Origin: Candidatus Tayloriibacteriota bacterium
GTDB taxonomy: Bacteria; Patescibacteriota; Minisyncoccia; Phycocordibacterales; HO2-43-120
Length of the DNA: 64,000 bases
Direction: 5' to 3'
Assembly (NCBI GenBank): GCA_039934295.1
Contig: JBDTMN010000002.1
Location: 26,725 to 90,724, forward strand
The notes beneath the pieces were generated by a model that saw only the letters and a list, made by a program, of their open reading frames with translations, did no database searches and was not told the DNA's origin. A program made the position numbers and the translations under genes. Shown here in pieces: positions 2,832 through 62,575 of this stretch; within the stretch, counting starts at the first letter, position 1; each line of letters starts with the position of its first letter.

Positions 2832-4670
2832 TTAAGACTTTTCCCGAAATAGTCTGGCGGAGTTAATGAGTGGGAAAAAGTCGCTCACAAAGTTGTAAAA
2901 TGCCGCCAATGCAGGACCGAGAACCCCGGTGAACACCAGCGCAAAGCCGATTACATTCGACGCAAACCAAATAATCATATCCCACCTAATAACCGACATA
3001 ACTTTTCGGCTATAAGAAATCGTGTCCGGCAGGCGGGATAAATCATCGTTTAAAATCACCACGTCGGCGGCTTCTACCGACACGGCCGCTCCACCCGAAC
3101 CCATTGCAATCCCTACATCTGCCCTAGCAAGAGCGGCAGCATCGTTTATTCCGTCGCCCACCATCGCCACAGGTCCCCCGCCAATAAGTTTTTCAAGTTC
3201 CCGAAGTTTTTCCTCCGGCTTCATTTCCGCGAGAACCTTGTCGATGCCGATCGCCCGAGCAATAGCGCCTGCAACCAATTTGTTGTCCCCTGTAAACATC
3301 TGGATATTATCCACGCCTAAACTCTGCAAATCAGCAATGCTCTCCCGCGCTTCAGGTCGGGGCATGTCACCCATTGAAAGGTATCCCCAGATTTTGCCGT
3401 TTCGAAATACAATCGCCCACGTTTTATCGCTCCCCTCAATCTTTTTCTTAATGCGAGACTTTTCCTCTTCGCTAAGAGCGATAGCAAGGTCAGAAATAAT
3501 GCTGAAATCCCCAATCGCAATCGCCTCTCCCTTGACACGAGCCGTAACACCGCTTCCCTTATACACCTTGAATTCCTCGGGGTCGGGAAAATCGCTCCCA
3601 TGTTTTATCGCTTCCTTAAAAATCGTCCTGCCGATAGGGTGCTCGGAAAACTTCTCTGTTACTCCTACCGCGCGCCAAAAATCGTCTGTGGAAATGCCCG
3701 GTTCGATCTCTATATCTTTAAGCTCAAACGAGCCATAGGTCAAAGTCCCGGTTTTATCGATAACAAGCGTCTTCAGTTTGCTTAATGTCTCTATCCACTC
3801 CCCTCCTTTCACAACCACACCGCGCTTGGCGGACCTGCCGAGAGCCGCCGTAATTGCAAGCGGTATGGCGACAGCCATGTCGTCGGCGCACGCTACCAAA
3901 AAAAGCGCGGCAGTCATCTCAATATTTCGAGTTATGACATAAGTGCCAATTCCCAGCGCGAGAACGATGGGAAGAAAAATCGTCGCAAATCTATCCGCCA
4001 ATTGTTCCGAATGAGATTTCTTTTTCGCCGCATCGGCAACAAGCGCGGCCATGCGTTCAATCGTAGAATCTTTTCCGACCCGTGTCGCCCGAATTTTTAT
4101 TAACCCCGATTCGTTGACCGTGGCGCTCAATACTTGATCGCCCACAACTTTCTCTACCGGCATTGATTCTCCGGTCACTGATGACTCATTTACAAGAGCT
4201 TTGCCAAATATCGTAATACCGTCCACGGGCACTCGGGACCCTTCTTTTATAAGGAGCGTATCCCCCATCGAAATAGCGTCAGTCGGAATCTCCTCGGTAT
4301 CGGCTCCTTTTTCCCTTAGCGCAGTCTGCGGTTTTAATTTAAAGAGTTCCTCGAGGGTTCGCCGGGTGCGCGACTCCGTATAGGCATTCAACATTCGAGC
4401 AAAAGCAAGCATGAGAATAATAAACGTTGCGGAATTCACGTCGCCATAGGCGAATGCCGCGCAAATGGCAAAGATATTGAACGAATCGATGCTAATGCGC
4501 GCCTTAAGCGTCGACTGGACGGCACCAATGAGCGTAGGCAGAGCGCCTAAAACCACTACCGGCCACAAAAAGTAAATCGCGGGAGGAAATAGAATTTTCA
4601 CCAAAAAGGCGATGACTATTGCAATCACCAAGGCAAAATCCATTTTCGTATTTACGTGCGCGTGGTTCAT
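2832..4670 (-). CDS. Cation-transporting P-type ATPase (HAD superfamily), no N-terminal metal-binding domain
   Basis: Actuator TGES (VTGESMPV), phosphorylation motif DKTGTLT and hinge MVGDGINDAAAL are all present. Multiple TM helices. No clear CPC/CPx motif seen, so ion specificity is uncertain. Confidence 0.85.
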   Translation of the reverse strand: MNHAHVNTKMDFALVIAIVIAFLVKILFPPAIYFLWPVVVLGALPTLIGAVQSTLKARISIDSFNIFAICAAFAYGDVNSATFIILMLAFARMLNAYTESRTRRTLEELFKLKPQTALREKGADTEEIPTDAISMGDTLLIKEGSRVPVDGITIFGKALVNESSVTGESMPVEKVVGDQVLSATVNESGLIKIRATRVGKDSTIERMAALVADAAKKKSHSEQLADRFATIFLPIVLALGIGTYVITRNIEMTAALFLVACADDMAVAIPLAITAALGRSAKRGVVVKGGEWIETLSKLKTLVIDKTGTLTYGSFELKDIEIEPGISTDDFWRAVGVTEKFSEHPIGRTIFKEAIKHGSDFPDPEEFKVYKGSGVTARVKGEAIAIGDFSIISDLAIALSEEEKSRIKKKIEGSDKTWAIVFRNGKIWGYLSMGDMPRPEARESIADLQSLGVDNIQMFTGDNKLVAGAIARAIGIDKVLAEMKPEEKLRELEKLIGGGPVAMVGDGINDAAALARADVGIAMGSGGAAVSVEAADVVILNDDLSRLPDTISYSRKVMSVIRWDMIIWFASNVIGFALVFTGVLGPALAAFYNFVSDFFPLINSARLFREKS

Positions 4671-4778
4671 TGGGTGTTTCGCTCATTTGCATTATAGCAG
4701 AGGCAAAAAAGAAATCACACAAAATACAAAGGAGTCCCCCTTAAATAGCCCGACAGCAACCATGCAAAATAAAATAGT

Positions 4779-4960
4779 GCTCGTCCTATCCCCGTAGCAG
4801 AGCTAGCGGGGTATTCGGCGAGCGCATTTTATTTTGAAAACCCCTCGGTTTTCAACGCTCGCCGACTCGCTGCTTTCCGCCACGGGGAAACTCCCGTTTC
4901 CCCGACCCCCTTCCCAAACTCCGCATTCATCCCCGCAGCAGAGCTGTGGGGAATTCTGCG
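4779..4960 (-). repeat. GC-rich hairpin-rich intergenic repeat, diverged inverted copy (copy 3 of family at 12411 and 21496)
   Basis: The reverse complement shares the blocks ctgcKgcggggatgaatg and cgaataccccgc...cggggataggacgag with the other two copies. The central long hairpin is replaced by a different hairpin (cggggaaactcccgtttccccg). GC is far above the surrounding sequence. Confidence 0.55.
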
Positions 4961-4966
4961 GATTTA

Positions 4967-6511
4967 TTAAACGAATCCGGGAAAATAGTCAGTTTTGATT
5001 TTAGAGCGTTTGACACCGATGCCTCGGAGAATTGCTTTGTACGAAGTTACCATCGCCTGCGGTCCTGAAATATAAAACTTTCGCTCCAGAAAATCAGGGA
5101 CTTCTCGTTTAACGGTTTGAGCAAAAAGCGCGGACAGCGCTTCCGGAGACAAGTGAACGCCGTCGTCGCTATATGAATAGACTGTTTTAATCCCGAGCTC
5201 CTTCTTTGCCCTTTCAAAAATATCCGAATATACGGCATCATTCGGAGTTTTATTGAAATACAAAAGAGTGATAGGGCGCGCCTCGCGGTTGTGAAGAAGA
5301 TACTGAATCATACTCCGAAACGGAGTGACCCCTATTCCCCCAGCGATGAAGACAAGCTTTTTATTTTTATTCTTTGGCAAGGTAAAATCGCCCGCGATCT
5401 CGGAAGCCACGATAGACTTCCCTGTGCTCATCGCGAGCATGGCTTTTTTGAATGTGCTTCCCGGTTCATAGAATTTCACCCCGATGGAAAGTTCTCGCTC
5501 GGTCGGAGAGGACGCAAGAGTAAAAAAACGCCTCACGCTCCGGCTATCGGGATGCGAGTGCGCAAGTGTCCACTCCATGTACTGCCCCGGCCGAAACGAA
5601 ACCGGCCTGTCTGACGCAAAAGCAAATTCATACACGTCTCGGGAAAGCCGAACTACTCGTTTCAGTTTCAAATTGAGCTTATATTTCGGGCTGACGAGAT
5701 ACGAAAATACATTTCCCACCAGAAGCGCGAGCTCGGGCGTGAAGTAGAAAGAACCGATGTTCACGTTCGGCAAAAACAGCAGGCCGACGAGAGCTCCGTA
5801 GAGTACACGCAATAATTTCGAGGGCGGAGTAGTCATCGGTTCCGTGAGCATAACCGTTGCAAAGAAAAACGTGGGAGCATAGAGCAACGCCTGACTTAAA
5901 GAACGCACGACATCAAGCCCTCTTCCAAAATAATAAAAGGCAATCCCCACAGTAAACACCCCTATGAAAGCAAACCACAAATCAAATCGTCGTATTTTCC
6001 GAACAATGAGAAGCCCCCCAATGAGCACAAACGGGACCATAGGAAGCGTCCCTATCCACCAACTAGCTGACAAGCCTAAAACAACGCTAGTAGCCGCCAC
6101 ACCGAAAGCGACGGGATTGAAAACATGCTTCTTTCGAATGGCTAAAATATATTTTGAGGCTATGGCAACTGCGGACGCCCAAAATGCGAGCGGAAGATAT
6201 TGCATATCGATCCAAAGAGTAGGGGGACTTATAATCAAAGCAAGAATGAGCGCGGTTATCCACGTTGATTCAGGATTCGAAGGAACCTCGAACATCCGAG
6301 CAAAAATTTTGTTCACAATCCAAGAAACAGAAAAAATAAAAGCCACCGAGAAAACAAGAAAAATAGGGTTTACCGGAAACACGCCAAAAAATCCCATGAT
6401 GAAGGCGACGAGCAAAAGAAAAGCAAGCTCGTACACCACGAGTCGGTACATCGTTATCCTATTTAATATTTTGTCGATTGCTTTTATCATCATGTATTTA
6501 AAAACCGGCAA
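4967..6511 (-). CDS. Membrane oxidoreductase: polytopic N-terminal domain (RnfD/NqrB-like by inference) fused to FNR-like FAD/NAD(P)H-binding domain
   Basis: The C-terminal half has an FAD-binding motif (RRFFTLASSP), an NAD-binding GGIGVTPFRSM motif and a C-terminal YxSGP-like segment (FYISGPQAM), as in the ferredoxin-NADP reductase family. The N-terminal 290 aa has about 8 TM helices with an HVFNPVAFG segment reminiscent of the RnfD/NqrB FNPA region. It overlaps the apbE end by 14 nt, so the two are co-transcribed. Confidence 0.7.
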   Translation of the reverse strand: MPVFKYMMIKAIDKILNRITMYRLVVYELAFLLLVAFIMGFFGVFPVNPIFLVFSVAFIFSVSWIVNKIFARMFEVPSNPESTWITALILALIISPPTLWIDMQYLPLAFWASAVAIASKYILAIRKKHVFNPVAFGVAATSVVLGLSASWWIGTLPMVPFVLIGGLLIVRKIRRFDLWFAFIGVFTVGIAFYYFGRGLDVVRSLSQALLYAPTFFFATVMLTEPMTTPPSKLLRVLYGALVGLLFLPNVNIGSFYFTPELALLVGNVFSYLVSPKYKLNLKLKRVVRLSRDVYEFAFASDRPVSFRPGQYMEWTLAHSHPDSRSVRRFFTLASSPTERELSIGVKFYEPGSTFKKAMLAMSTGKSIVASEIAGDFTLPKNKNKKLVFIAGGIGVTPFRSMIQYLLHNREARPITLLYFNKTPNDAVYSDIFERAKKELGIKTVYSYSDDGVHLSPEALSALFAQTVKREVPDFLERKFYISGPQAMVTSYKAILRGIGVKRSKIKTDYFPGFV

Positions 6512-21481: not shown

Positions 21482-21495
21482 TTTTAGCGAATATG

Positions 21496-21711
21496 TTTAT
21501 TGGAAGCGGACAGAATACCTCGCGTCCCTCCTGCGACGAGGATGAATGGCCGCAGTGGAATGAGAGCGAGCGCCCGCCCGAACGTAACGTTTCGGTACGG
21601 GCGGGGAGCTCGCTCTTCTTGAACTATGTTTCCCTGATGCCTCGCCTAATACCCTGCCGAGGTACTCCGAGGGGACAGCTTGCTGCGGGGGTAGGACGAG
21701 GCCAAACTTTA
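21496..21711 (+). ncRNA. GC-rich structured repeat element, copy 2
   Basis: Same 5' (ttattggaagcggacag...) and 3' (...taggacgaggccaaactttat) ends and the same central hairpin as copy 1 at 12411. It lies between the ftsQ stop and the DD-carboxypeptidase start. Confidence 0.5.
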
Positions 21712-21746
21712 TTATACTTTAAAAAAGCATTTCCCATACTTACCTT

Positions 21747-22589: not shown

Positions 22590-22697
22590 ACAAATGACTT
22601 ATAACTTATCACTGAATAACAAATAGCTGAATGACTCGAAGCAAAAATTCATTTTTGGTTATTCAGTCATAGAGTTTAGAGTCATGAGTTATCTGTA

Positions 22698-24983: not shown

Positions 24984-25082
24984 TACGTAACTTATAACCC
25001 ATAACTGAATGACAGAATAACCAGAACAAAATTTAGATTTTTGTTATGAGTTATTCAGTTATTAGTTATTCAGTCATCAGTC

Positions 25083-25775
25083 CTACCACCCCTTCTTCTT
25101 CAACCCATTCTCGGCCGCTTTTTGTTCCGCTTCCTGTTTTGACTTTCCATCGCCACTTGCAATCAGAGCGTCGCGCAAGTAAACGCCGACTGTAAAAAAC
25201 TTGTCGTGGTCTGGACCGAGCTCTTTCGATACTTTGTACATGGGTGTGATTCCCTCAATCTCCTGGGATTTTTCCTGAAAAAGACTCTTCGCGTCAATCC
25301 ATGTTCCCTTGACCACGATATCATCGATATGGGGGGTAATATATTTGTTGATAAAATTTTCCGCCTCCTTATATCCCTGATCCAAAAATATCGCGCCGAT
25401 CAAGGCCTCCATCGTATTCGCTAAGATAATCTGTCTTGCTTTGCCCTTATCTTTGCTCTCGCCTTTCGAAAGAAGGAGAAAGTCGTCCATGTTGAGCTCT
25501 ACTGCGATGGAAGAAAGAATAATGGCGTTTACCAAAGCCGAGCGGTAGGAGGTAAGGTCGCCTTCGTTTTTGTTTGGGTATTTCTTATACAAATAAACCG
25601 TAGAAACAAGCTCCAGAACTGCGTCTCCCAGAAATTCCAGCCGTTCATTATGCTCCAGAGTCATCCTCTTGTTTTCATTGATGAAAGAGCGATGAGTAAA
25701 AGCCTGCTTCAAAAGGCCCTTGTTTTTAAAAGAGACTCCTATTTTTTTTTCAAATTGTTCGAAATCCATATACAC
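25083..25775 (-). CDS. rnc: Ribonuclease III
   Basis: RNase III signature ERLEFLGDAVLELV plus a C-terminal dsRBD. Confidence 0.9.
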   Translation of the reverse strand: MYMDFEQFEKKIGVSFKNKGLLKQAFTHRSFINENKRMTLEHNERLEFLGDAVLELVSTVYLYKKYPNKNEGDLTSYRSALVNAIILSSIAVELNMDDFLLLSKGESKDKGKARQIILANTMEALIGAIFLDQGYKEAENFINKYITPHIDDIVVKGTWIDAKSLFQEKSQEIEGITPMYKVSKELGPDHDKFFTVGVYLRDALIASGDGKSKQEAEQKAAENGLKKKGW

Positions 25776-25776
25776 G

Positions 25777-25812
25777 ATGCGAATTTACGAATAAATCAGC
25801 GAATGCTACGAA
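25777..25812 (-). promoter_or_regulatory. 35-nt ATTCG-iterated element, inverted copy, abutting the rnc start
   Basis: cacgatgcgaatttacgaataaatcagcgaatg is the reverse complement of the 24040 element with 3 mismatches. Confidence 0.4.
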
Positions 25813-25869
25813 TAAATGATTCAACTTCTTCCATTTGTTGATTCGCATGCATTTGTAGATTGGCATCGC

Positions 25870-26766
25870 TTATTTTTTTAGTAAAATACTGACTGCCTTC
25901 GTCACAATCGGCAAAATGTCGTTATATAGGTTAAGCTCGATGATCTCGTCAATTTTAAACCATCGGGCGTCGTTGAGACCCCCCGACTCCCCAAGAGTAA
26001 TCGGCGTATACTTCGATTCTCCCAGAAAATAGTGGACCTCTTTTCTGATTTTGCCTTTCTCGGGGTCCGATGCGATATATTCATTCTTGCCCAAATCTTC
26101 TTTTATCTCAATGTCGAGGCTGAGCTCTTCTTTAATCTCTCGTATTGTCCCCAATTTTACGTCTTCATCCCCTTCGAGCTTGCCTTTGGAAAGGGTCCAA
26201 TGTCCGAAAATATCGTGGACAAAAGCAAGATAGATGGTTTTTTTGCTTTTAGCGAAAACAACAGCCCCGCCCAATTTGATTATCGTCATGTCCTCGTAAG
26301 CGATTTCGGGACGAATTTTCTTCTTTGAAACCTCATCTTTCCCCGGCTCCCCCATTTCCTTATACACAGAGCCGAGCACGCCGTTTACAAATTTGCCACT
26401 ATTTTCTCCGCCAAATTTTTTTGCGAGCTCAATTGCCTCATTAATTGCAACTTTGGCAGGCACTTCAGCTCGGTCCGAAAACAGTAGCTCAAAAAGCCCG
26501 ATGCGAAGGACATTGCGATCCACGTATGAAATTTTGGCGATCGGCCATTCGGGAGCGGCTTTTTCGATTACCTGATCCAAATCTGCTCTCTTTTTTAATA
26601 TATCTTTTGCAAGCGAGACCACGAAAGACAAATCACCGATGCCTGGAGCGAATTCCTTGGCATTTCTCGCTAATATCTCATCAATATCGCTCTCTTTTCT
26701 TTGGGCAAAATCCCACTCGAAGAGCGATTGGAGAACTATTGATCTTGAAAGGTGCCTGTTGGCCAT
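25870..26766 (-). CDS. nusB: NusB transcription antitermination factor fused to a C-terminal NUDIX hydrolase domain
   Basis: The N-terminal 140 aa has a NusB fold pattern (RSIVLQSLFEWDF...NEAIELAKKFGGE). The C-terminal 150 aa carries the Nudix box GKLEGDEDVKLGTIREIKEELSLDI. Confidence 0.75.
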   Translation of the reverse strand: MANRHLSRSIVLQSLFEWDFAQRKESDIDEILARNAKEFAPGIGDLSFVVSLAKDILKKRADLDQVIEKAAPEWPIAKISYVDRNVLRIGLFELLFSDRAEVPAKVAINEAIELAKKFGGENSGKFVNGVLGSVYKEMGEPGKDEVSKKKIRPEIAYEDMTIIKLGGAVVFAKSKKTIYLAFVHDIFGHWTLSKGKLEGDEDVKLGTIREIKEELSLDIEIKEDLGKNEYIASDPEKGKIRKEVHYFLGESKYTPITLGESGGLNDARWFKIDEIIELNLYNDILPIVTKAVSILLKK

Positions 26767-26784
26767 TTTACATAGAACATGTAA

Positions 26785-26850
26785 CGCGTAACATATAACA
26801 TTTAAGATCGTATCCTCTTGTGTTACAAGTTGCGTGTTGCGTGTTGTGTG
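26785..26850. repeat. Heptanucleotide GTAAC-core tandem arrays in inverted pair (downstream of rpmF, upstream of nusB)
   Basis: gtaacgc gtaacat ataacat ... then gttacaa gttgcgt gttgcgt gttgtgt. The two arms can form an imperfect long hairpin. Confidence 0.55.
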
Positions 26851-26852
26851 TT

Positions 26853-27101
26853 CTACTTCTTGGGTTCTACCCCCAATGCTTTATTCTTGTCTTTCATCCT
26901 TTGTTCTTTTCTTGCGGTTTTTGCTTCCATATCGATGATCTGCACGCCTCGGTATTTTCCACAGTTCGCGCAAACACGGTGGCGAAGATGCAATTGTCCG
27001 CAATCCTTACACGTCGAAAGACGCGGCTCCCCGAGCGCGTGGTGGCTACGGCGATTTGCCGTGTGAGATCGCGTGTGCCTCATTCGAACTACCATGGGCA
27101 A
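26853..27101 (-). CDS. rpmF: 50S ribosomal protein L32
   Basis: RMRHTRSHTANRRSHHAL...C..C...LRHRVCANCGKYRG matches the bL32 zinc-ribbon pattern. Confidence 0.8.
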   Translation of the reverse strand: MPMVVRMRHTRSHTANRRSHHALGEPRLSTCKDCGQLHLRHRVCANCGKYRGVQIIDMEAKTARKEQRMKDKNKALGVEPKK

Positions 27102-27127
27102 TAGTATACCTAAGTAGGAAGAAAAGG

Positions 27128-27225
27128 CAAGAATGTGTAACGCAAAACGTGTAACGTATAACGCCTGAAAAAATATCCCTTTTTCTTCCGTTACACGTTA
27201 TACGCTACACGCTACACATTTTTCA
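27128..27225. repeat. Inverted pair of heptamer (GTAACR-like) arrays upstream of rpmF forming a long imperfect hairpin
   Basis: Left arm tgtgtaacgcaaaacgtgtaacgtataacg, right arm cgttacacgttatacgctacacgctacaca, separated by a 25-nt loop. Confidence 0.55.
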
Positions 27226-30306: not shown

Positions 30307-31173
30307 TTACATCTTATTAAACAACTTCAGCCGAGCCTCCGCCACCCTCTCCACTTCCTCCATGGGTAATTTCATATATTTATACGGCGCGACCTCTTCG
30401 GGATTTTCCGCCAGGGACTTTTTGATTCCGTTTACGAATGCGACCCGAAGCTCGGTGGAAATGTGCGTGATTGAAATCCCGGCGTCAATTGCAGAAACTA
30501 AATCTTCGTCCACCGTTCCCGAGCCTCCATGAAGAACGAGGGGGATGCCCGACGCAACTCTAATATCTTTGATTCTCTTTATGTCGAGGCGGGGGTCATG
30601 TCCCACTCGCATCATGCCGTGGACGTTCCCCACCGCCGGAGCCAGAAGATCGATTCCCGTCATTTCAACAAATTTTTTCGCAACGTCCGGATGGGTAAGG
30701 TCATCACCCGTAACTTTTACGCCCTCGGGAAGCGCGTCCAATACTTTGGACGACTGACCGATGTATCCAAGCTCCCCCTCAATTAAAATATCGGGGCGGA
30801 CACTTTTTGCATATTCAACGCACTTCTTTGTCATCGCCACATTTTCATCGAAAGAAAGCTTCGCCCCGTCAATGATTGCAAGATCAAACCCTGCATCTAT
30901 CGCTTCCTTCACCCGCTCAAAACTATACGTGTGGTCAGCATTCAAAAAGACCGGGAAATTCGCTTCTTCCCGAAGACTTCGAACAACCGCCACAATTTGC
31001 TTTACTCCAAAAAAAGCGCGTTCACCTTCCGATGCTCCAATAATGACGGGAACACCGAGCTTCTTAGCCGCTGTGAACACCGCTTGAACCATCTCGATGT
31101 TTGAAATATTAAAATGTCCGATTGCGACCTTATTTTTTTCCGCCTCGGCAATGTATTCAAGAAGCGTTTTCAT
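30307..31173 (-). CDS. fba: Class II fructose/tagatose-bisphosphate aldolase
   Basis: MKTLLEYIAEAEKNKVAIGHFN... and LVLHGGSG match class II FBA. Confidence 0.85.
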   Translation of the reverse strand: MKTLLEYIAEAEKNKVAIGHFNISNIEMVQAVFTAAKKLGVPVIIGASEGERAFFGVKQIVAVVRSLREEANFPVFLNADHTYSFERVKEAIDAGFDLAIIDGAKLSFDENVAMTKKCVEYAKSVRPDILIEGELGYIGQSSKVLDALPEGVKVTGDDLTHPDVAKKFVEMTGIDLLAPAVGNVHGMMRVGHDPRLDIKRIKDIRVASGIPLVLHGGSGTVDEDLVSAIDAGISITHISTELRVAFVNGIKKSLAENPEEVAPYKYMKLPMEEVERVAEARLKLFNKM

Positions 31174-31356
31174 GGGGATATTGTATCACAATCCATCGGT
31201 ATGGAAAATTCGAAATTCGAAGAGCGAAATTCGAAAAAATTCAGAATAATTAACTGAAAGATCAGTTGCTTGAATTTAGAATTTTTTCACATTTTTTCGA
31301 ATTTCGAATTTCGGATTTCGTGCTTATATTTTTGCTTTTTGCTATACTATTCGAAT

Positions 31357-32346
31357 ATGAGAAACATGGACTTCCTCGCCATCGGTGACGTTACCACCGA
31401 CGCGTTCATCCGAATCAAGGACGCGAGCGTAACCTGCGACCTGGACCGCCGTAATTGCAAGCTCTCTTTGAATTTCGCCGACAAAGTGCCCTACGAATCG
31501 GTGACAGAACTTCCAGGAGTCGGAAACAGCCCTAACGCCGCCGTCTGCGCCGCCCGACTCGGACTCTCTTCGGCAATTGTTACGAATGTGGGCGATGATG
31601 AAAACGGGAAAGCTTGTGAAAAAGCTTTGAAGCAAAACGGGGTTAAGGCCAACTACCTCACCCGAGAAAAAGGCAGAAAAACAAATTACCACTACGCCCT
31701 TTGGTATGAAGACGAACGAACGATTTTAGTAAAACATGAGGAATTCAACTATTCCCTTCCAAAAATACAGACTCCTTCCTGGGCATATGTGAGCTCTCTC
31801 GGGTCAAACTCATTCAACTACCATTTGGAAATTATTGAGTTTCTAAAGAAAAATCCGGAGGTGAAACTTGTTTTTCAGCCCGGAACATTCCAAATGAAGC
31901 TCGGTCGGGAGAAACTAAAAGATATTTACGCGCGGTCAGAAATTTTTATCTGTAATGTTGAAGAAGCGCAGAGAATACTTGACATGCCAAACGGAGAAAT
32001 AAAAGCACTGCTGGCAAAGATGCACACGCTTGGACCGAAAATTGTTTCAATAACCGACGGTCCGAAAGGCGCCTACGCTTCCGACGGAAAAGCGCAGTGG
32101 TTCATGCCGATCTACCCCGACCCAAAACCCCCTCTTGAGAGAACAGGTTGCGGAGACTCCTTTGCCGCTACCCTTACGGTGGCAATTTCTCTAGGCAAAA
32201 GCTTAGAAGAAGCTCTCCTGTGGGCGCCGATTAACCCCATGTCTGTGGTACAATATGTGGGGGCGCAGGAAGGGCTTTTGAGCCGAAAAGCGCTAGAGGA
32301 TCTCTTAGCGAGGGCACCTGCCGATTATAAACCTAGAAAAATATGA
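31357..32346 (+). CDS. PfkB-family carbohydrate kinase (ribokinase-like)
   Basis: DFLAIGDVTTD at the N-terminus and the PfkB signature TGCGDSFAATLT. The start is taken at the internal ATG 31357 (MRNMDFLAIGD). Confidence 0.8.
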   Translation: MRNMDFLAIGDVTTDAFIRIKDASVTCDLDRRNCKLSLNFADKVPYESVTELPGVGNSPNAAVCAARLGLSSAIVTNVGDDENGKACEKALKQNGVKANYLTREKGRKTNYHYALWYEDERTILVKHEEFNYSLPKIQTPSWAYVSSLGSNSFNYHLEIIEFLKKNPEVKLVFQPGTFQMKLGREKLKDIYARSEIFICNVEEAQRILDMPNGEIKALLAKMHTLGPKIVSITDGPKGAYASDGKAQWFMPIYPDPKPPLERTGCGDSFAATLTVAISLGKSLEEALLWAPINPMSVVQYVGAQEGLLSRKALEDLLARAPADYKPRKI

Positions 32347-32678: not shown

Positions 32679-32755
32679 GTCGGTCTCGGAAATGACTTTT
32701 TTCACATCTCCAAACGCGTGTTGGAGATTTTTTCTACACTTTCAAATCGCCATTC

Positions 32756-35324: not shown

Positions 35325-35403
35325 GGTAGTTTAGTATGATAGTAAGTTAGTATATTAGTATGCCAGAAACTAGAATTCTTCTAAAATACCAACTTACTAT
35401 CTA

Positions 35404-36078
35404 CTAGCTTACTTTCTTAAACTCCTCAACCGTTTCCACAAGATTTTCGCTCTCGAATATCGCCGAGCCCACCACGAGCCGGTCTGCGCCTTCTTCTTTT
35501 AAAAGCTTCGCATTCTCCAAATTTACCCCTCCATCAACTGACACCAAAATCTCCGGATGATTGTTCTTGAATTCCCTGATTTTACCATAGACTCTCTCGT
35601 CAAGCTCTTCTCCCTGGAAGCCAATCTTCGCAATTCCCATAAATTGCACGAATTGAATGTTCTCGAGATAAGGCAAAATGGCATCATTCGGCGTATCGGG
35701 ATTAAGAGCAATCCCCAGTTCAACCACATCTTGAGTTGCAGAAAATATCGAACTTATCTCATTTTTTAGCGCTTCAACATGAATAATAATGCGCGATGCC
35801 CCTGCGCTTATCCAATCGGAAACAACCGCCTCGGGATTCAGGACCATCAAATCAACTTCAAAATCAAGCTCTTTCCAATAGGGCATTCCTTCGTCCTCTT
35901 TCAAAATCTTCTCGAAATCGACGCTGTATTTTCCCTTTACATATGGCCAGCTCTCCCTCGGCACAAATTTCCCGTCACAGACGTCAATCTGCACTAAAGG
36001 AACGAGACCTTTCACTTGCGAGAGATGCTCCTCTAAATCTTCGAAATTTTTGGGGATGATGGCGGGGATTATGGTCAT
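35404..36078 (-). CDS. rpe: Ribulose-phosphate 3-epimerase
   Basis: IIPAIIPKNFEDLEE...LVQIDVCDGKFVP and the RPE barrel pattern. Confidence 0.85.
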   Translation of the reverse strand: MTIIPAIIPKNFEDLEEHLSQVKGLVPLVQIDVCDGKFVPRESWPYVKGKYSVDFEKILKEDEGMPYWKELDFEVDLMVLNPEAVVSDWISAGASRIIIHVEALKNEISSIFSATQDVVELGIALNPDTPNDAILPYLENIQFVQFMGIAKIGFQGEELDERVYGKIREFKNNHPEILVSVDGGVNLENAKLLKEEGADRLVVGSAIFESENLVETVEEFKKVS

Positions 36079-36150
36079 GAAAAAAGCTTTTAGCTTCTAG
36101 CTGTTAGCTACTAGCTTTAAAATTAAAAGCTGACAGCTAATAGCTCTAAG

Positions 36151-36612
36151 TTAGCTAATGTTGTCTAACATCGCATTCCTCTTCATATGCCTCTCGTCGG
36201 CTGAAAACGGTGTCGCGAGCCACATATCAACTGCCTGTTTCGCTTCGGAAAAAGGCACAAAGTCCGCGCCTAACGCAAGGACATTAGCATCATTGTGTTC
36301 TCTTCCGAGACGGACAACTTCCAAATTCCCGCCATCATACACAATCGCTCGCACCCCGGGAAACCGATTGCACACTATGGCTTCGCCTTGCCCCGATTTG
36401 CCTATTACAATTCCCCTATTCTTCTCCGGATTTTGAGCTATCGTAAACGCAAGTGGAGTCAAAATTTCCGGGTAATCATCTCCCTCCACATATTTTTTCG
36501 CTCCAAAATCTTCCACGTCGAAATCCTTGCCGAGAAGATATTTCTTAAGCTCCTCTTTCAATGCAAATCCCGCGTGATCGGACCCGATAAAAATTTTAGA
36601 TGATTTCTGCAT
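36151..36612 (-). CDS. rpiB: Ribose-5-phosphate isomerase B
   Basis: KIFIGSDHAGFALKEELKKYL is the RpiB/LacAB signature. Confidence 0.85.
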   Translation of the reverse strand: MQKSSKIFIGSDHAGFALKEELKKYLLGKDFDVEDFGAKKYVEGDDYPEILTPLAFTIAQNPEKNRGIVIGKSGQGEAIVCNRFPGVRAIVYDGGNLEVVRLGREHNDANVLALGADFVPFSEAKQAVDMWLATPFSADERHMKRNAMLDNIS

Positions 36613-43894: not shown

Positions 43895-44866
43895 TTACAC
43901 GCTCCTAAATATTTTTACCAACTCGTCTCCAAATTTTTTAATTGAAACATCGTCGTAAACAGAGACAGACAGAACAAGAGGGTTGAGTTTCTTCATCTCT
44001 TTTATAGTCTTCCCCAAATGTTTTGCGTCCACGACATCCGTTTTTGTGAGAATAATAATTTCTTTCTTCTCGGCCAAATCTTTGTCATAGTCTTCAAGCT
44101 CTTTGCGGATTATTTTGTACGCTCCCTGCAAATCCTCATTTTCAAGCGAAATGCAATGAAGGAGAATTTTTGTTCTTTTTATGTGCCGTAGAAATTTATC
44201 TCCCAAACCCTTTCCCTTTGAAGCTCCCTCAATGAGCCCGGGAATGTCGGCTAGAATGAATCCGAAAAAATCTCCGAGATTTGGCTCTAACGTAGTGAAT
44301 GCATAGGACCCGACCTTGGCGTCCGCATTGGTAAGAACATTCAAAAGACTCGATTTTCCGGCATTCGGGAGTCCAATAATCCCCGCATCAACAAGCAATC
44401 GAAGTTCCACAAAAAAGTCCGCCGCTTCGCCTATTTTCCCCTCCGTGAACTGCCGCGGACTTCTGTTGGTGGACGCTTTGAAATGTTCGTTTCCTAACCC
44501 GCCTCGCCCGCCCTTCAAAATAAGGGTAGTCTCTCCGTCTTGCAACAGCTCGTGAACCGTGCCATCGCTCAAGTTGGTAATAAGTGACCCAAGAGGAAAA
44601 TCAATGACAAGATCGGGCGCGTTTTTTCCATACATATTTTTTTCCATTCCGTCCTGTCCATCTTCTGCCTTAAACTCTCTTTTATTGCGATATTTTGCCA
44701 AAACGCCCAAATCGCGAATAGCCCGAGCATAAATGCCTCCGCCATTCCCGCCGTTCCCTCCCGCAGGTCCCATCCTGTCCTTGCCTTTCTCCTGAAGCCA
44801 GCGCACCACGCCGTCTCCCCCGTCACCCGCCTTCATATGTATTTTTAGTTCGTCGATGAAAGCCAT
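43895..44866 (-). CDS. obg: GTPase Obg (no C-terminal TGS/OCT domain)
   Basis: MAFIDELKIHMKAGDGGDG, the Gly-rich GGNGGNGGG, and G1 GLPNAGKSSL. Confidence 0.85.
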   Translation of the reverse strand: MAFIDELKIHMKAGDGGDGVVRWLQEKGKDRMGPAGGNGGNGGGIYARAIRDLGVLAKYRNKREFKAEDGQDGMEKNMYGKNAPDLVIDFPLGSLITNLSDGTVHELLQDGETTLILKGGRGGLGNEHFKASTNRSPRQFTEGKIGEAADFFVELRLLVDAGIIGLPNAGKSSLLNVLTNADAKVGSYAFTTLEPNLGDFFGFILADIPGLIEGASKGKGLGDKFLRHIKRTKILLHCISLENEDLQGAYKIIRKELEDYDKDLAEKKEIIILTKTDVVDAKHLGKTIKEMKKLNPLVLSVSVYDDVSIKKFGDELVKIFRSV

Positions 44867-44914
44867 AAATAGTTATAAAGTAGAAAGTTATAAGGTTATA
44901 AAGTAAAGACTCGA

Positions 44915-45259
44915 TTAAATTTTCTTTATGAATGCGGACAATAATCTGGAAACTTCAAGTGCCATATCACGCAAGGTACGGAAATCTGATTCATGCAGAT
45001 ACTTTAATTCAAAAGCGAGATAAAGCAAAGAACGAACTTCGCCAGATGACCCTTTTGCTATATAAAGAAAATTTCTTAATTCAGCATTTGTGTGTCGCTC
45101 AAAACCCTCAGCAATATTGTTCATAATTGAAACTGAAGCACGTTGTATCTGATCCTTAAAAGCATAATCTCTATTGTTGGCAAAAAGTTTATACAAAAGT
45201 AAAGTTAACGTTTTTGACTTCTGCCAAGCAATAATTTCCTCAAAAGATGTAATCCTCAT
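44915..45259 (-). CDS. Four-helix-bundle protein (23S rRNA IVS-protein-like family)
   Basis: FEEIIAWQKSKTLTLLLYKL...IMNNIAEGFERHTNAELRNFLYIAKGSSGEVRS is the typical pattern. Confidence 0.65.
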   Translation of the reverse strand: MRITSFEEIIAWQKSKTLTLLLYKLFANNRDYAFKDQIQRASVSIMNNIAEGFERHTNAELRNFLYIAKGSSGEVRSLLYLAFELKYLHESDFRTLRDMALEVSRLLSAFIKKI

Positions 45260-45292
45260 TTCTTAACTTTAAAACTTTATAACCTTATAACT

Positions 45293-46213
45293 TTACAAAC
45301 TTAAGATTGCTCGCTTTGCGAGCTCGATTGCTCCTTCTTTCGACTTCGCCACAACCAAAAAGCGGTTGTTGTGGCAAAAGATGGCGTCGGCCACTCCGGT
45401 CGCTTTTGCGAGCTCCTCGTTTCTTTTTCCCGCCCAAGCCTCTGGCATGTCTTTTCGGCTTACAAACTGCGCCAAAGAATCCCTGACCGCTTTTACGCCG
45501 TATGTACCATCGGCGCGGTGATACACCACAAAAAGAGGTTCGGGCAATTTCGATAAAACCTCCTGCCAAAAATATTCCTTCTCAAGAACCACAATTCTTT
45601 TGTCCTCTGATTTCCTATAATCTTCAAGGACTCTCTTTTCCCCTTCCATTTCGTCTTGCAAAAACTTGACAGCTCGCGAGAGAATCTTTTTGCAGAGGCG
45701 CACAGTTTCCTCAAATTTCGCAAAAGCCGTGTCGCTTTCTTCTTTCCAGGTGGGGTTCGACATCAAGACAAACTGATGCAAGGAATAGGAGTTGATATCG
45801 GGGAAAATTGGCTTTGAAAGAGCCACTCCGTTGTCATGGGCATCGAAAGGAGCCACGAGCTCAAGGTCGATTCTTTGAGCGACCTCAATTGAGCCTCCGC
45901 AGATTTCCCTTCCAAACTTCTTCCACACCAACCCGAATGCGGCAAAGGGAATTTCGTTTTCTCTTCTTCCCGCCCCGCCTTTCTGATGGTGGTCAAAACG
46001 ATTCTTTTTTTCATCGTAGACATCCCCTACGTCAACGACATATTCTCCCCTTTCCCAGTCCTTCGGGTTTCGACTTCTTACTATCTCGACTTCTTGAGCT
46101 TCTTTTTTCAAGTGAAGAAGAAGAGTGGCCACGGCAAAACAGTCATCCGTATGGAATGTTCCTGTGTGAGTCACAATGACGGGCTTGTTAGTTTTAGAAT
46201 TTTTCTCTTCCAT
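45293..46213 (-). CDS. MYG1/UPF0160 family metal-dependent hydrolase
   Basis: VTHTGTFHTDDCFAVATLLL...DVGDVYDEKKNRFDHHQ is the UPF0160 signature. Confidence 0.7.
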   Translation of the reverse strand: MEEKNSKTNKPVIVTHTGTFHTDDCFAVATLLLHLKKEAQEVEIVRSRNPKDWERGEYVVDVGDVYDEKKNRFDHHQKGGAGRRENEIPFAAFGLVWKKFGREICGGSIEVAQRIDLELVAPFDAHDNGVALSKPIFPDINSYSLHQFVLMSNPTWKEESDTAFAKFEETVRLCKKILSRAVKFLQDEMEGEKRVLEDYRKSEDKRIVVLEKEYFWQEVLSKLPEPLFVVYHRADGTYGVKAVRDSLAQFVSRKDMPEAWAGKRNEELAKATGVADAIFCHNNRFLVVAKSKEGAIELAKRAILSL

Positions 46214-46742: not shown

Positions 46743-46913
46743 AACAGTTTAGTACTTACGTTTTTTTCTCTTACACCGCTTGCTAGCGGTGTCCTCATTT
46801 TTACAGCTACTCTAGGACTCGCAGGTAAAAATGGGAACTGCACTCAAACGCGCAAGCTCTTGATAAACAAGGATAAATTGATTATTACATGAAAAAGCTT
46901 GAGAGCATAGGGC

Positions 46914-46956
46914 AAAGAAAGTCGCCGAGCACCTCCGGTGCTCGGCGACTTTCTTT
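46914..46956 (-). terminator. Bidirectional-type terminator hairpin immediately after the rplU stop
   Basis: aaagaaagtcgccgagcacc-tccg-gtgctcggcgactttcttt is a perfect 20-bp stem whose A-run and U-run arms pair. Confidence 0.6.
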
Positions 46957-47339: not shown

Positions 47340-48512
47340 TTATTCGTCCTCGCCCACATCTGGCTTCTCGAGCGCTAAAGGCTCAAAGTCGCTCGCTTTG
47401 CCGGTGATGCGAACGACATCTTTGTTTATCTTGCCAAACTCTTTGTCCGATGTATTGAAATGGCTAACCACAGTTGCAAGCGAGTTGCCGAGCTTGCCAT
47501 GATACTCTTGATAGGAGCGGAGATGCTTCTGGAGAGCCTCCACATTTTTGCGAATATCTTTTGCCGATTCTTCTATCTGGAGTGCCTTCAAGCCTTGTAA
47601 CACAGTCTGGAGAAATGCCAGGAATGAAGTCGGAGACACAATCAGCACATGCTTGTCCTTAAAGGCATATTCAATGAGGTCGCGGGTATTGATTTTCATC
47701 CCACCCACTTCTGCGACCAAAAGGTCATAATAAATTGCTTCGTGCGGAATAAACATGAACGCAAAATCCATCGTGCCTTGCGAAGGCTGAACGTATTTTG
47801 CCGTTTCATCAATGCGATTTTTGAGATCGCCTTTAAACGCCTTCTCGAGACGCTCGCGCTCCGCCGGGTCTTTCTCCGCAACAAGACGATTGTAATTTTC
47901 AAGCGAAAACTTCGAGTCAATCGGAATAATTTTGTCTTTCACGTGCACGACCGCATCCACAATCGTGCCATCCTTGAATGGATACTGCATTTCGAAGCTC
48001 CCCGGAGGCAGAACATTTTTGAGCAATGTCTCAAGATAGTATTCGCCAAGTATTCCTCTCTGTTTTGGATTTTTCAAAATGTCCTGCAGGTTTTGTAACT
48101 GGTCGGCAAAGGATACCACCTGCTTGTTGGTCTCGTCGAGCTTGGTCAAGCCCTGTGTCACGTCGCGGATAAGCTTTGCCGACTCGCTAAACTGGGTACG
48201 GACAGAATCGCTCATCTGCTTTGACCCTTCGGTCATTTTGGCGTCCACGGTTTTTCCCAAATCACTCATTTTTGAGTCCACCGTCCTCCCAAGCTCATTT
48301 AGCTGATTCAATAGCAATGTGAGCCCTTGACCGTCTTCCTTCGGCTTATCCCTTTTTCTCAAAAAAAAGAAAAGTAAAGCGCCATTTCCCACGAGGAAAA
48401 TAACCAAAATCAGGACAAGAACGTAGATATTAATTTGCATGGGGGTATTATACCAGAGAACGTGTAACATATAACATGTAACATTTAACGGGTAACGGGT
48501 AACGGGTAACAT
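47340..48512 (-). CDS. rmuC: DNA recombination protein RmuC
   Basis: N-terminal TM helix, coiled coil, then the RmuC core ILGEYYLETLLKNVLPPGSFEMQYPFKDGTIVDAVVHVKDKIIPIDSKF. The true start may be Met-25 (about 48440), because the first 18 codons of the ORF are encoded by a heptamer repeat array. Confidence 0.75.
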   Translation of the reverse strand: MLPVTRYPLNVTCYMLHVLWYNTPMQINIYVLVLILVIFLVGNGALLFFFLRKRDKPKEDGQGLTLLLNQLNELGRTVDSKMSDLGKTVDAKMTEGSKQMSDSVRTQFSESAKLIRDVTQGLTKLDETNKQVVSFADQLQNLQDILKNPKQRGILGEYYLETLLKNVLPPGSFEMQYPFKDGTIVDAVVHVKDKIIPIDSKFSLENYNRLVAEKDPAERERLEKAFKGDLKNRIDETAKYVQPSQGTMDFAFMFIPHEAIYYDLLVAEVGGMKINTRDLIEYAFKDKHVLIVSPTSFLAFLQTVLQGLKALQIEESAKDIRKNVEALQKHLRSYQEYHGKLGNSLATVVSHFNTSDKEFGKINKDVVRITGKASDFEPLALEKPDVGEDE

Positions 48513-48513
48513 C
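48465..48513. repeat. Seven tandem heptamers: gtaacat ataacat gtaacat ttaacgg gtaacgg gtaacgg gtaacat
   Basis: Directly readable at 48465-48513. It abuts or overlaps the annotated rmuC start and precedes a TGgTATAAT extended -10-like element on the minus strand. Confidence 0.6.
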
Positions 48514-48536
48514 TGATAGGAAACTTAAATTTTTTC

Positions 48537-48580
48537 TGACATACGTTATAATCTTGCTATAGCTAGATTATAACGTATGT
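48537..48580. promoter_or_regulatory. Perfect 17-bp inverted repeat with 10-nt spacer in the divergent rmuC / 48582 promoter region
   Basis: gacatacgttataatct-tgctatagct-agattataacgtatgtc. Confidence 0.5.
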
Positions 48581-48581
48581 C

Positions 48582-48971
48582 TTGAATCTAAGAGAGGTTG
48601 GAAGAGTATTTGAGATGACGCATTACAATTTATTCATTTCGAGTTATAATAGCTATATGAAAAAAAGATATTGGTTGAAGGGAGGAGTTATAGGATTTTT
48701 GACTCCCATAATTTTTATACCCTTAGGATATAGTCCCGTTGGTTTTGTAACTGGCCTTCTATTGACTCCTGTTGTCTTTATAACCAAAATGATTTTTGGG
48801 AGTTCAATCCTGGAAGAAAATACTGTGGATGGGACCGTAGTTTCAAATAGTATAGCTTCCGTGTTTCGCTTAGCTGCTGTGTTTTCCCCAATTTTTTGGT
48901 TTTTCATTGGTGCAATTTTAGGTTGGTTTTATGGCAAAATTAAAAACCGAAACTCTAAATCTATAAGCTAA
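48582..48971 (+). CDS. Hypothetical membrane protein
   Basis: 129 aa with 3-4 TM helices. Confidence 0.4.
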   Translation: MNLREVGRVFEMTHYNLFISSYNSYMKKRYWLKGGVIGFLTPIIFIPLGYSPVGFVTGLLLTPVVFITKMIFGSSILEENTVDGTVVSNSIASVFRLAAVFSPIFWFFIGAILGWFYGKIKNRNSKSIS

Positions 48972-48996
48972 CAGCTAATAGCTAACAGCTACTCTT

Positions 48997-51667: not shown

Positions 51668-51809
51668 CCGTAATCATTCGTTCTTCTCATCACAACAGAG
51701 CCCCAAGGTTTCGGCCTCGGGGTTTTTCTTTTTTTGTCATTTATCCAAAAAATGCTATATTTCTTAGATTGGAAATTAGATATTAGTAATTAGAAATTTC
51801 TGCATGTTT

Positions 51810-51881: not shown

Positions 51882-52424
51882 CAGATTTTTGCGTAGCATA
51901 AAAAGCTGTGACACTAAGCAGAGCTGGGGGCTCTGCGTCAGGGAGTCGAAGCCCGATTGAGCATTTTTTTTGAGTTTGCTTCAAACGAGGAAAAAATCCA
52001 ATCGGGGTACTGAACATGTAATGTTCGACTCCCTGTAGGGTCACAAAAATAATGAGGACAATGCGGAGCATTGGCTGAGTATAATTTTGTAGATTCTACA
52101 GGGAGTCGAAAGACGGAGCGGGCACCCGTTCACCAGAACGGGTCGCGAGTCGGGGTCGCGGCTTTTGTGAGACGGCGGTCGAACAAAAAGCTGTGACCGA
52201 CTCCCTGTAGGGTCACAAATTTTTTTAAAGCGAGCAAACTGCTTTGCTCGTGAAAAATTTGTGAAGGCACAGGCCTAGTTCGCGAGTACGCGAACAGCCG
52301 AGCCGGGGTCGGCAAGTACTTACATTTTTTGTGATTTTAAGAAACAAAAAATTTAGTAACTTGTGACCACATAAACTTTGAGTGCGTAGCACACAATTAT
52401 GACCGACTCCCTGTAGGGTCACAG
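51861..52424 (+). repeat. Array of four direct copies (plus two inverted partial copies) of the tRNA-Glu 3' end (T-loop plus acceptor 3' strand)
   Basis: Direct copies (g/a)(t/c)cgactccctgtagggtcaca at 51861-51883 (in the tRNA), 52023-52045, 52197-52219 and 52401-52423. Inverted partial copies agggagtcgaa at 51941-51951 and 52101-52111. Spacings 162, 174 and 204 nt. Confidence 0.7.
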
Positions 52425-62023: not shown

Positions 62024-62538
62024 TGAATCAATTTGATTAACTCATATACTTCTCCTTTAATCGTAAGGAAAACTTTCACGAATTCTTTTCCGTTCGCGCT
62101 CTCGTGTTCAAATGATAGAGCGTCAATGGAAACAAAATCGCTATTCAATTTATTTTCGGGTGATGCTCCTCTTCTTAGCATGATACTTTTTCCCGCTGGG
62201 TCAAAACTCAACGTTAAAGAAATTCCGGACCCGCGCAGAGAGAGCGTTGACCCAGAACTACCCAATGCGGGCACTGATACAGACGTAACTCCGGCAAACA
62301 AGGAATCAATCTTTTTGAGCAAGAAATTTGTCTCTTCAATGAGCAGGACTTTTTCGCTCATGGCATTTTCGTTTGCAATAACCTGATATGCAGTCTGAAG
62401 AAAACTTCCCATGATAAGAGCAAGAAGGGCAATGTAAATGAGAGACTCGATGAGGGTGAAGCCGCGGGAATATGTAACATGTAACTTGTAACATGAAACA
62501 TGGAAAAATCTTTTTTGCATTTTTGATTTCATGGTCAA
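62020..62538 (-). CDS. Type IV pilin-like protein with long leader
   Basis: SRG|FTLIESLIYIALLALIMG is the canonical prepilin N-methylation/cleavage motif with Glu5. The leader is 20-26 aa depending on which Met is used. Confidence 0.7.
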   Translation of the reverse strand: MTMKSKMQKRFFHVSCYKLHVTYSRGFTLIESLIYIALLALIMGSFLQTAYQVIANENAMSEKVLLIEETNFLLKKIDSLFAGVTSVSVPALGSSGSTLSLRGSGISLTLSFDPAGKSIMLRRGASPENKLNSDFVSIDALSFEHESANGKEFVKVFLTIKGEVYELIKLIQ

Positions 62539-62560
62539 ATGTTAAATGTTACATGCTACA
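62471..62560. repeat. Inverted pair of heptamer GTAACA-type arrays. One arm is inside the pilin leader-coding region, the other in its 5' UTR
   Basis: atgtaacatgtaacttgtaacatgaaacat (62471-62500) and aatgttaaatgttacatgctacatgc (62537-62562) are mutually reverse-complementary heptamer runs flanking the start codon region. Confidence 0.5.
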
Positions 62561-62575
62561 TGCTTCCTGTCATTC

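Follow-up and report, generated by a model that had tools for sequence, protein, structure and literature searches.

What kind of element places runs of a GTAAC-core heptamer beside genes as different as rpmF, rmuC and a pilin gene? A 64-kb stretch of a metagenome-assembled genome of Candidatus Taylorbacteria (Patescibacteria), referred to here as the window, raises this question at four sites. Our analysis assigns a probability of about 0.6 to the reading that these GTAAC runs are four local cases of a widespread class of intergenic heptameric simple-sequence repeats, a class that is defined by its 7-nt (here 7-8-nt) period rather than by the sequence of its unit. The runs share the features of this class, namely head-to-tail 7-nt units above chance, a non-coding position, presence at many loci, and inverted pairs within operons. 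The evidence firmly establishes that the arrays and their hairpins are real, recent in their lineage, and built on a Xanthomonas-type architecture; it is equally firm that the period is general, that GTAAC has no privileged place among cores, and that PF05635 genes are typically enclosed by arms of this sort.

The period of the arrays was assessed with a strict scan, which measures self-match at each period and compares it with dinucleotide-preserving shuffles of the window. Seven strict period-7 arrays were observed against 0.05 in the shuffles, and two period-8 arrays against none, while the same scan of the window at periods 4-6 and 9-11 gave no arrays. Tandem Repeats Finder, run on the window, reported period-7 arrays at all four GTAAC sites, so the heptamer runs claimed in the original prediction are present at each of them. 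The inverted pairs that it described at rpmF and at the pilin gene also stand, at three sites in all, two of which adjoin rpmF. At these three sites, where each strand was folded separately and judged by its energy (in kcal/mol) and z-score, the stems are 17-26 contiguous pairs long, and one strand or both score between z -4.9 and z -6.9.

The first pair lies in the rpmF-nusB spacer, between the rpmF stop (26853) and the start of the nusB-NUDIX gene (26766). One arm, at 26770-26805, reads AGAACAT GTAACGC GTAACAT ATAACAT on the + strand; on the sense (-) strand it is ATGTTAT ATGTTAC GCGTTAC ATGTTCT, which leads in register into the ATG of nusB. The facing arm (26822-26856), GTTACAA GTTGCGT GTTGCGT GTTGTGT on the + strand, overlaps the rpmF stop codon; only on the + strand does its pairing with the first arm involve G-U pairs, 4-6 of them. 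This hairpin reaches -36.5 kcal/mol (z -6.9) on the + strand, against -19.8 kcal/mol (z -2.1) on the sense strand. The second pair occupies the rnhB-rpmF spacer, which is bounded by the rnhB stop (27212) on one side and by the promoter and start (27101) of rpmF on the other. Its arms read, on the + strand, GTAACGC AAAACGT GTAACGT ATAACGC (27128-27165) and CCGTTAC ACGTTAT ACGCTAC ACGCTAC (27188-27218), the latter overlapping the rnhB stop codon (27212-27214), and the hairpin folds at -43.1 kcal/mol on the sense strand (z -6.5, with 7 G-U pairs); in the comparison of strands it gave -46.4 kcal/mol on the sense strand against -34.7 kcal/mol on the antisense strand. The long G-U-containing stems of the original prediction are thus real, but they do not simply surround the 5′ region, one rpmF hairpin lying upstream of the gene and the other downstream; likewise, its G-U-rich RNA stem holds for the sense strand at rnhB-rpmF, but at rpmF-nusB the G-U-rich version belongs to the antisense strand.

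The third pair stands at the pilin gene, between the stop of an LVIVD-repeat gene and the pilin gene itself (type IV pilin-like), with arms at 62467-62507 and 62533-62569 (coordinates on the + strand). The two strands fold at -30 and -36 kcal/mol, with z-scores of -4.9 and -5.5. The sense strand of the first arm lies in a prepilin-leader frame (...FFHVSCYKLHVTYSRG|FTLIE); the frame reads MKSKMQKRFFHVSCYKLHVTYSRG|FTLIESL, and its N-terminal methylation motif was confirmed by Pfam. Judged from the reading frame, the loop and 3′ arm of the hairpin probably code for the prepilin leader, if either upstream ATG is used. The fourth site is a direct array of seven units upstream of rmuC, GTAACAT ATAACAT GTAACAT TTAACGG GTAACGG GTAACGG GTAACAT (48459-48516, + strand), with neither an inverted partner nor a fold. 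Its variant units are clustered (CAT CAT CAT CGG CGG CGG CAT), and such blocks are expected of slippage. The extended -10 element proposed here was recovered as TGGTATAAT on the - strand (48455-48447), 6 nt ahead of the ATG (48440), so that the start region reads TGGTATAAT-ACCCCC-ATG, a leaderless-type promoter with the array directly upstream.

The class extends far beyond this genome. A search for (GTAACNN)n arrays, which the original prediction had proposed along with a survey of the adjacent genes, was run on one genome per species and returned at least 120 stretches of four consecutive units, where a rough estimate puts the chance expectation at about 1; in the window, the adjacent genes share no function. 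The matches span Bacteroidota, Cyanobacteriota, Chloroflexota, Planctomycetota, Acidobacteriota, approximately ten Patescibacteria, and others, and 120 of these loci, with 836 kb of surroundings, were taken as seeds for further analysis. Non-GTAAC arrays in these surroundings again favour the heptamer, with 99 of period 7 as against 8 of period 6, 22 of period 8, 7 of period 9, and at most 6 of any longer period. Additionally, 56 inverted pairs in the seeded loci of other phyla fold as hairpins. A regulator specific to GTAAC, as originally envisaged, finds no support, given that the window also carries ATAACTG, TAGCTNN, AAATTCG, TTAGTATG and AGTTATAA arrays, and that control cores of equal base composition are as frequent in viral contigs (GTAAC 80 stretches, CATGA 49, TACGA 104). 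Nor is a 7-nt period unusual, as had been supposed: among long simple-sequence repeats, those of 7 nt are the commonest in bacteria and the most abundant in many bacterial genomes, with polymerase slippage as the proposed cause (Mrazek 2007, as cited in PMC4679880 and PMC4692102).

Within the 64 kb, at least 14 non-coding spacers contain 7-8-nt arrays, mostly as inverted pairs, at least ten of them beyond the GTAAC sites, and at least six unrelated unit families are represented. The arrays are confined to spacers or overlap stop codons only, the exception being the possible prepilin leader at 62467-62507. The arms of most inverted pairs lie 20-40 nt apart, and most non-GTAAC pairs fill spacers between co-directional genes. 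A pair of ACTTATA / ATAACTGAATGAC units in the serS-ftsQ-like spacer (22590-22697) shares its unit family with the ATAACTG.../...CAGTTAT pair between the convergent dprA and rnc genes (24985-25082). The nusB-rnc spacer is filled by a long hairpin (25776-25869) whose arms are internally repeated at a period of about 18-21 and which folds better on the antisense strand (-30.0 kcal/mol) than on the sense strand (-19.1 kcal/mol). At 31206-31325, (AAATTCG)n and (TTTCGAA)n arrays face each other as an inverted pair within a divergent promoter region, each array directly upstream of a leaderless-type promoter. The spacer between the genes for ribulose-phosphate 3-epimerase and the transketolase N-terminal subunit is filled by a pair of 8-nt units, TTAGTATG / CTTACTAT (35331-35419), and the rpiB-rpe spacer holds a TAGCTNN array pair (36085-36160), to which an AGCTAAC array (48958-48993) is related. 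An ATTAGAA array (51768-51798) and the 8-nt AGTTATAA arrays that flank a PF05635 gene (44867-44914 and 45260-45302) are also present. The view that the unit arises from a 6-bp palindrome by addition of a single base (ACATGT+A, TTCGAA+A) fits some units of the window, but it fails in the wider sample.

Comparison with related genomes indicates that the hairpins are young. Beyond one identical (100%) NCBI protein, the nearest homologues of the window's NusB-NUDIX protein are about 74% identical in protein sequence, and arrays are missing from the orthologous junctions of four relatives that retain the rnhB..rpmF-nusB-rnc synteny. Two further relatives, compared for spacer lengths, likewise lack arrays; their rnhB-rpmF spacer measures 16 nt, rpmF-nusB 50-60 nt and nusB-rnc 9-12 nt, as against 110, 86 and about 94 nt in the window. 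Absence of the hairpins from these shorter orthologous spacers marks them as recent, lineage-specific additions of roughly 30-95 nt. The original prediction had taken conservation of position in related genomes as its touchstone, and this went partly against it, with arrays missing from the same positions at about 74% identity. That hairpins of 70-95 nt have been added to spacers of 9-16 nt in a streamlined genome argues that they are actively generated or inserted rather than leftover. As regards variation in unit number, a second assembly of the contig (L001) is identical over the 12.7 kb examined for such polymorphism, while the arms around the PF05635 gene differ in the order and number of units between the window and a relative, L655.

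Under the heptamer-repeat reading, we infer that the arrays grow and turn over through slipped-strand mispairing of 7-nt units. A transcript, or an exposed single DNA strand, crossing the inverted pairs would fold into a stem of 17-30 bp, and the inverted form may be kept since an RNA stem within polycistronic transcripts is either tolerated or of use, where it might serve in RNase III processing, as an insulating element, or as a 3′-end hairpin. Stems of at least 20 bp are expected RNase III substrates if transcribed. The gene for this enzyme, rnc, is encoded nearby as had been noted (25083-25769, - strand), and its product would be expected to cut such stems if they are transcribed. A role at the RNA level, with the stems as RNase III substrates like that of the Haemophilus influenzae hmw 5′-UTR, is plausible. 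The hairpins without an open reading frame (ORF) and the repeat-armed PF05635 cassette at 44867-45302, described below, may also be elements of one kind.

Several observations weigh against this reading. Whole hairpins of 70-95 nt stand where relatives have spacers of 9-16 nt, which resembles the insertion of a ready-made element more than growth in place. More than one locus of the window draws on a common unit family, and a near-identical RTAACRY pair is found in another Patescibacteria genome, neither of which is predicted by a purely independent local origin. The strand with the lower folding energy is independent of the direction of the flanking genes: of ten window hairpins and the 56 pairs elsewhere, about half fold better on the sense strand (close to 50:50 for the 56, and about even for those set between co-directional genes), so that nothing points positively to selection on the sense RNA, and at rpmF-nusB the sense stem is weak. 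However, variant units spread by duplication and each hairpin thus reflects few independent events, which makes the strand test uninformative rather than negative. Viral contigs show no excess of period 7 (at least 120 arrays of period 6, 99 of period 8 and 80 of period 7), although this collection is rich in giant-virus contigs and a poor proxy for bacterial spacers. Period-6 arrays can also be in-frame coding repeats. Finally, slippage alone accounts for neither the 7-nt preference nor the inverted pairing.

L031 is the genome with the RTAACRY pair just mentioned, which is preceded by a TGGTAAAAT -10 box and followed by a start codon, and hence lies in a 5′-UTR; a partial second pair comes after the same gene (3820-3940 and 5020-5095 for the two).

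The most serious competing explanation, which we consider possible but doubtful, holds that the hairpins belong to a family of inserted, repeat-armed stem-loops. Its complete form would carry a PF05635 gene and would be the mRNA-spacer counterpart of the 23S rRNA intervening sequence (IVS), the ORF-less hairpins would be non-autonomous or decayed, and the pentameric PF05635 protein may recognise the repeated core of the arms. The window contains one such complete cassette. Its gene (44915-45259, - strand) encodes a PF05635 / TIGR02436 protein of 114 aa (Pfam E = 4e-32), a four-helix bundle named ‘23S rRNA intervening sequence protein’, and sits between MYG1 (45293-46213) and obg (43895-44866). 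The 3′ arm (44867-44914, - strand), between the PF05635 stop and the obg start, reads (ACTTTATA / ACCTTATA)n in the sense direction, and the 5′ arm (45260-45302, - strand) reads AAGTTTGT AAAGTTAT AAGGTTAT AAAGTTTT AAAGTTAAG. The two arms, built of 8-nt units, form a 21-bp perfect inverted match with a duplex energy of -29.1 kcal/mol, as against -11.4 ± 2.8 kcal/mol for shuffled arms. In L656 and L657, whose Obg is 69% identical, MYG1 and obg overlap or lie 15 nt apart without a PF05635 gene, and this adjacency identifies the cassette of the window as an insertion. In L655 (Obg 85%, PF05635 protein 81% identical) the cassette is present, with a shared AAGTT/AGGTT core and a different order and number of units.

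This arrangement recurs elsewhere, and PF05635 genes are typically enclosed by inverted arms of 7-9-nt units. A hidden Markov model search of the 120 GTAAC-seeded loci found eight PF05635 ORFs (in Chloroflexota, Planctomycetota, Bacteroidota and Patescibacteria), all eight flanked by inverted arrays; for four of them or more, one arm is the very GTAAC array that seeded the locus. We compared 130-nt flanks in a sample of 73 metagenomic PF05635 homologues with those of 119 other ORFs on the same contigs. An exact inverted flank match of at least 12 nt occurs in 32 of the 73 homologues and in none of the controls, and the median longest match is 10 nt as against 7 nt (Mann-Whitney p = 1e-11). The arms are oriented, with AAGT upstream of the genes 211 times in the sense and 27 times in the antisense direction and the mirror image downstream, and their cores are spaced by 7 nt (52 times), 8 nt (40) or 9 nt (58), spacings of 6 or 10 nt being rare. 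Within 200 nt of PF05635 genes the array density is approximately 3.3 per kb, compared with 0.28 per kb elsewhere on the same contigs, and arrays elsewhere on a contig share 7-mers with their own cassette arms more often than with the arms of other loci (0.32 vs 0.08). Besides the window and L655, the loci behind this observation are L009, L024, L025, L042, L083, L088, L089, L104 and L575-L654.

The closest solved structure is PDB 2GSC, the protein XCC0516 of Xanthomonas campestris, with five chains in the entry. The idea that each arm holds five units to match a pentameric protein was rejected, as the chains comprise 2-5 units with no peak at five. Also in favour of inserted elements, GGGAATC array no. 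15 of this species is separated from accB (XCC0517) by 6 nt and overlaps the XCC0516 start as annotated (PMC4692102), and the window hairpins likewise behave as insertions. On the other hand, ORF-less arrays far outnumber PF05635 genes, about 95% of the GTAAC seeds having none nearby, and the ORF-less hairpins of the window mostly have units unlike the arms of its one cassette; hairpins and cassette are linked by shared architecture only. No target-site duplications were seen, and a search with Rfam placed none of 20 other cassettes, nor that of the window, in an rRNA gene. To our knowledge, the PF05635 protein has no catalytic or mobility function, which also counts against insertion by this route.

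In a broader form that we hold only as a speculation, the bacterial heptamer excess would in part be the footprint of a selfish stem-loop family with oriented arms of 7-9-nt units, whose complete form carries the PF05635 gene. Such elements would insert in operon spacers and, in the form of classical IVS, in rRNA genes and be tolerated via RNase III excision, the pentameric PF05635 protein would recognise the core of its own arms, and the ORF-less rpmF, nusB, rnc and pilin hairpins would be non-autonomous relatives. Of all these results, the PF05635 association most deserves to be pursued, in our view. Bacterial heptamer repeats have been on record since 1990, with their origin and function unexplained, and this association, which is statistically strong, supplies a concrete candidate protein with representatives in several phyla, a cultivable host in X. 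campestris and a solved structure (XCC0516). It thus makes an old descriptive puzzle experimentally approachable. Our literature search, which left most subscription journals outside its reach, found nothing linking PF05635 to tandem-repeat arms.

The rpmF region offers a related arrangement, in that arms of its two different hairpins can also pair with each other. The outer arms (27188-27218 and 26770-26805) pair across rpmF at -32.6 kcal/mol, and the inner arms pair less strongly (-15.7 kcal/mol). A long-range stem of the outer arms could therefore enclose rpmF, as the cassette arms enclose the PF05635 ORF.

That the arrays are binding sites, on DNA or RNA, of a sequence-specific regulator of the adjacent genes appears improbable. 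In the GTAAC arrays the AAC positions are the least variable of the unit and the flanking two or three positions the most, a pattern that resembles the sites of ring-shaped RNA-binding proteins; the near-identical RTAACRY pair in the L031 5′-UTR would fit such a role, and reporter data from Nostoc suggest that heptamer repeats affect expression (10.1101/2022.06.06.494920). However, a single regulator is difficult to reconcile with six or more unrelated unit families in 64 kb, or with neighbours that have no common function (rpmF, nusB, rmuC, pilin, and the sugar-phosphate/glycolytic enzymes of rpiB, rpe, transketolase and fba). The positions are not conserved in relatives, GTAAC is no commoner than control cores, and arrays are also found after stop codons and between convergent genes, besides before starts.

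Equally hard to credit is the proposal that the hairpins are intrinsic or bidirectional terminators. Its best case is the rnhB-rpmF hairpin, which stands upstream of the conserved rpmF promoter where four relatives have a canonical terminator of GC stem and T run; the 24985-25082 hairpin lies between convergent genes, and L008 has a heptamer-pair hairpin with a T run after it. Nevertheless, the window stems are 17-30 bp long, AT-rich and without a U tract, and none was flagged by a terminator scan, whereas ordinary terminators of GC stem and T run are found elsewhere in the window, near 32700, 46940 and 51700. Several hairpins lie within presumed operons, directly before start codons. The missing U tracts and the ordinary terminators elsewhere rule out termination as a general explanation.

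Pilins are classic phase-variable genes. A phase-variation switch, in which gain or loss of 7 nt shifts a reading frame or promoter spacing, is nonetheless very unlikely even at the pilin gene, its main candidate, where the 62467-62507 array lies in an open prepilin-leader frame that a one-unit change would shift and where the phase-variable hmw heptamers offer a precedent (PMC12721329), but where the start codon is uncertain, the sole second assembly is identical, and the same arrays stand beside housekeeping genes in which switching would be senseless.

Other signals in the window accompany these arrays. The rpmF gene has a promoter-like site, TTGCCT-16-TATACT (27103-27130, - strand), 7 nt before the ATG at 27101, of leaderless type and conserved in relatives; the arrangement TTGCNT-N16/17-TATACT-N6/7-ATG is kept in L002, L004 and L005. 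Four sites, 27101-27130 (-), 31173-31207 (-), 31330-31359 (+) and 48438-48455 (-), have a -10 box, often of the extended TGn form, 6-8 nt before an ATG without a Shine-Dalgarno sequence, a proximity that suggests leaderless mRNAs. Thousands of Patescibacteria homologues share the NusB-NUDIX hydrolase fusion (25870-26766, - strand). At 48538-48581 stands a perfect 17-bp inverted repeat, GACATACGTTATAATCT...AGATTATAACGTATGTC, with TATAAT in both directions and directly upstream of a gene starting at 48582; it may serve as an operator or as two divergent promoters. An Rfam scan of the window at the gathering score returned two tRNAs only and matched no heptamer hairpin. Four GC-rich intergenic stretches (52072-52224, 21482-21746, 4671-4966 and 46743-46955) fold strongly, to -0.51 kcal/mol per nt; they have no Rfam match at the gathering threshold and may be unannotated structured RNAs.

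Among known systems, REP/REPIN elements are short palindromes mobilised by RAYT transposases, and their intergenic inverted doublets form hairpins. The window shares with them spacer hairpins made of inverted doublets, but its copies are not near-identical and their arms are tandem-repeated. A REPIN/RAYT origin was rejected, as tblastn with a Y1 transposase found no RAYT in the 64 kb and the units differ between loci. A classic REP/RAYT element is seen in L656 (6440-7365), where a RAYT-like Y1 transposase (PF01797) is flanked by GAGGAGGYTSAGCCTCCTC palindromes, unlike the heptamer hairpins.

The 23S rRNA IVS with a PF05635 ORF, of the Leptospira and Coxiella type or among the rRNA insertions of the candidate phyla radiation (CPR; PMC11270868), has inverted flanks able to form a long RNase III-type stem, as does the window cassette. 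These IVS lie inside rRNA genes, whereas the window cassette and the 20 others lie between protein-coding genes. Arms of the window type consist of 7-9-nt units in tandem, built on an AAGT-type core of fixed orientation, a feature not found described in the literature searched.

Heptamer arrays in Patescibacteria were likewise not found in the literature within reach of our search, most subscription journals lying outside it. In marine Beggiatoaceae, Cyanobacteria and Bacteroidetes, TAACTGA arrays often stop a few nucleotides short of starts that lack a Shine-Dalgarno sequence (MacGregor 2015, PMC4679880). They resemble the window arrays, as do the cyanobacterial short tandemly repeated repetitive (STRR) heptamers, in being intergenic heptamers of 2-6 units with a patchy distribution across phyla and a TAAC-containing unit, and TAACTGA itself is found in the window pair at 24985-25082. 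In contrast to the window arrays, they are almost all direct (one inverted pair in 170 sets), with a single dominant unit per genome.

In the H. influenzae hmw 5′-UTR, (ATCTTTC)n forms the heptamer arm of a long G-U-rich hairpin that is cut by RNase III; transcription and cleavage have been experimentally shown, and changes in repeat number need both the hairpin and RNase III (PMC12721329). The predicted hairpins of the window resemble this one in their length, G-U pairs and heptamer arms, the G-U-rich strand being the sense strand at some sites and the antisense strand at others. In hmw, however, the repeat occupies one arm only, the other being G-rich, and the system is a single phase-variable virulence locus.

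A close parallel is X. campestris, which has 186 GGGAATC arrays, about 70 of them inverted pairs of four units placed 21-67 nt apart (PMC4692102, Rehm et al. 2015). The spacers that these pairs occupy lie within operons, gltB-gltD, groES-groEL and atpA-atpG among them; most of the pairs are transcribed, and 83% keep their gene context between X. campestris and X. axonopodis while their lengths change (PMC4692102). Xanthomonas differs in having one dominant, G-rich unit genome-wide with G-quadruplex potential, as opposed to the several AT-rich families, none of them G-rich, of the window, whose host is a small-genome Patescibacteria organism. Nevertheless, the two systems share 7-nt arrays of about four units, inverted pairs set in operon spacers and, at XCC0516, an array beside a PF05635 gene.

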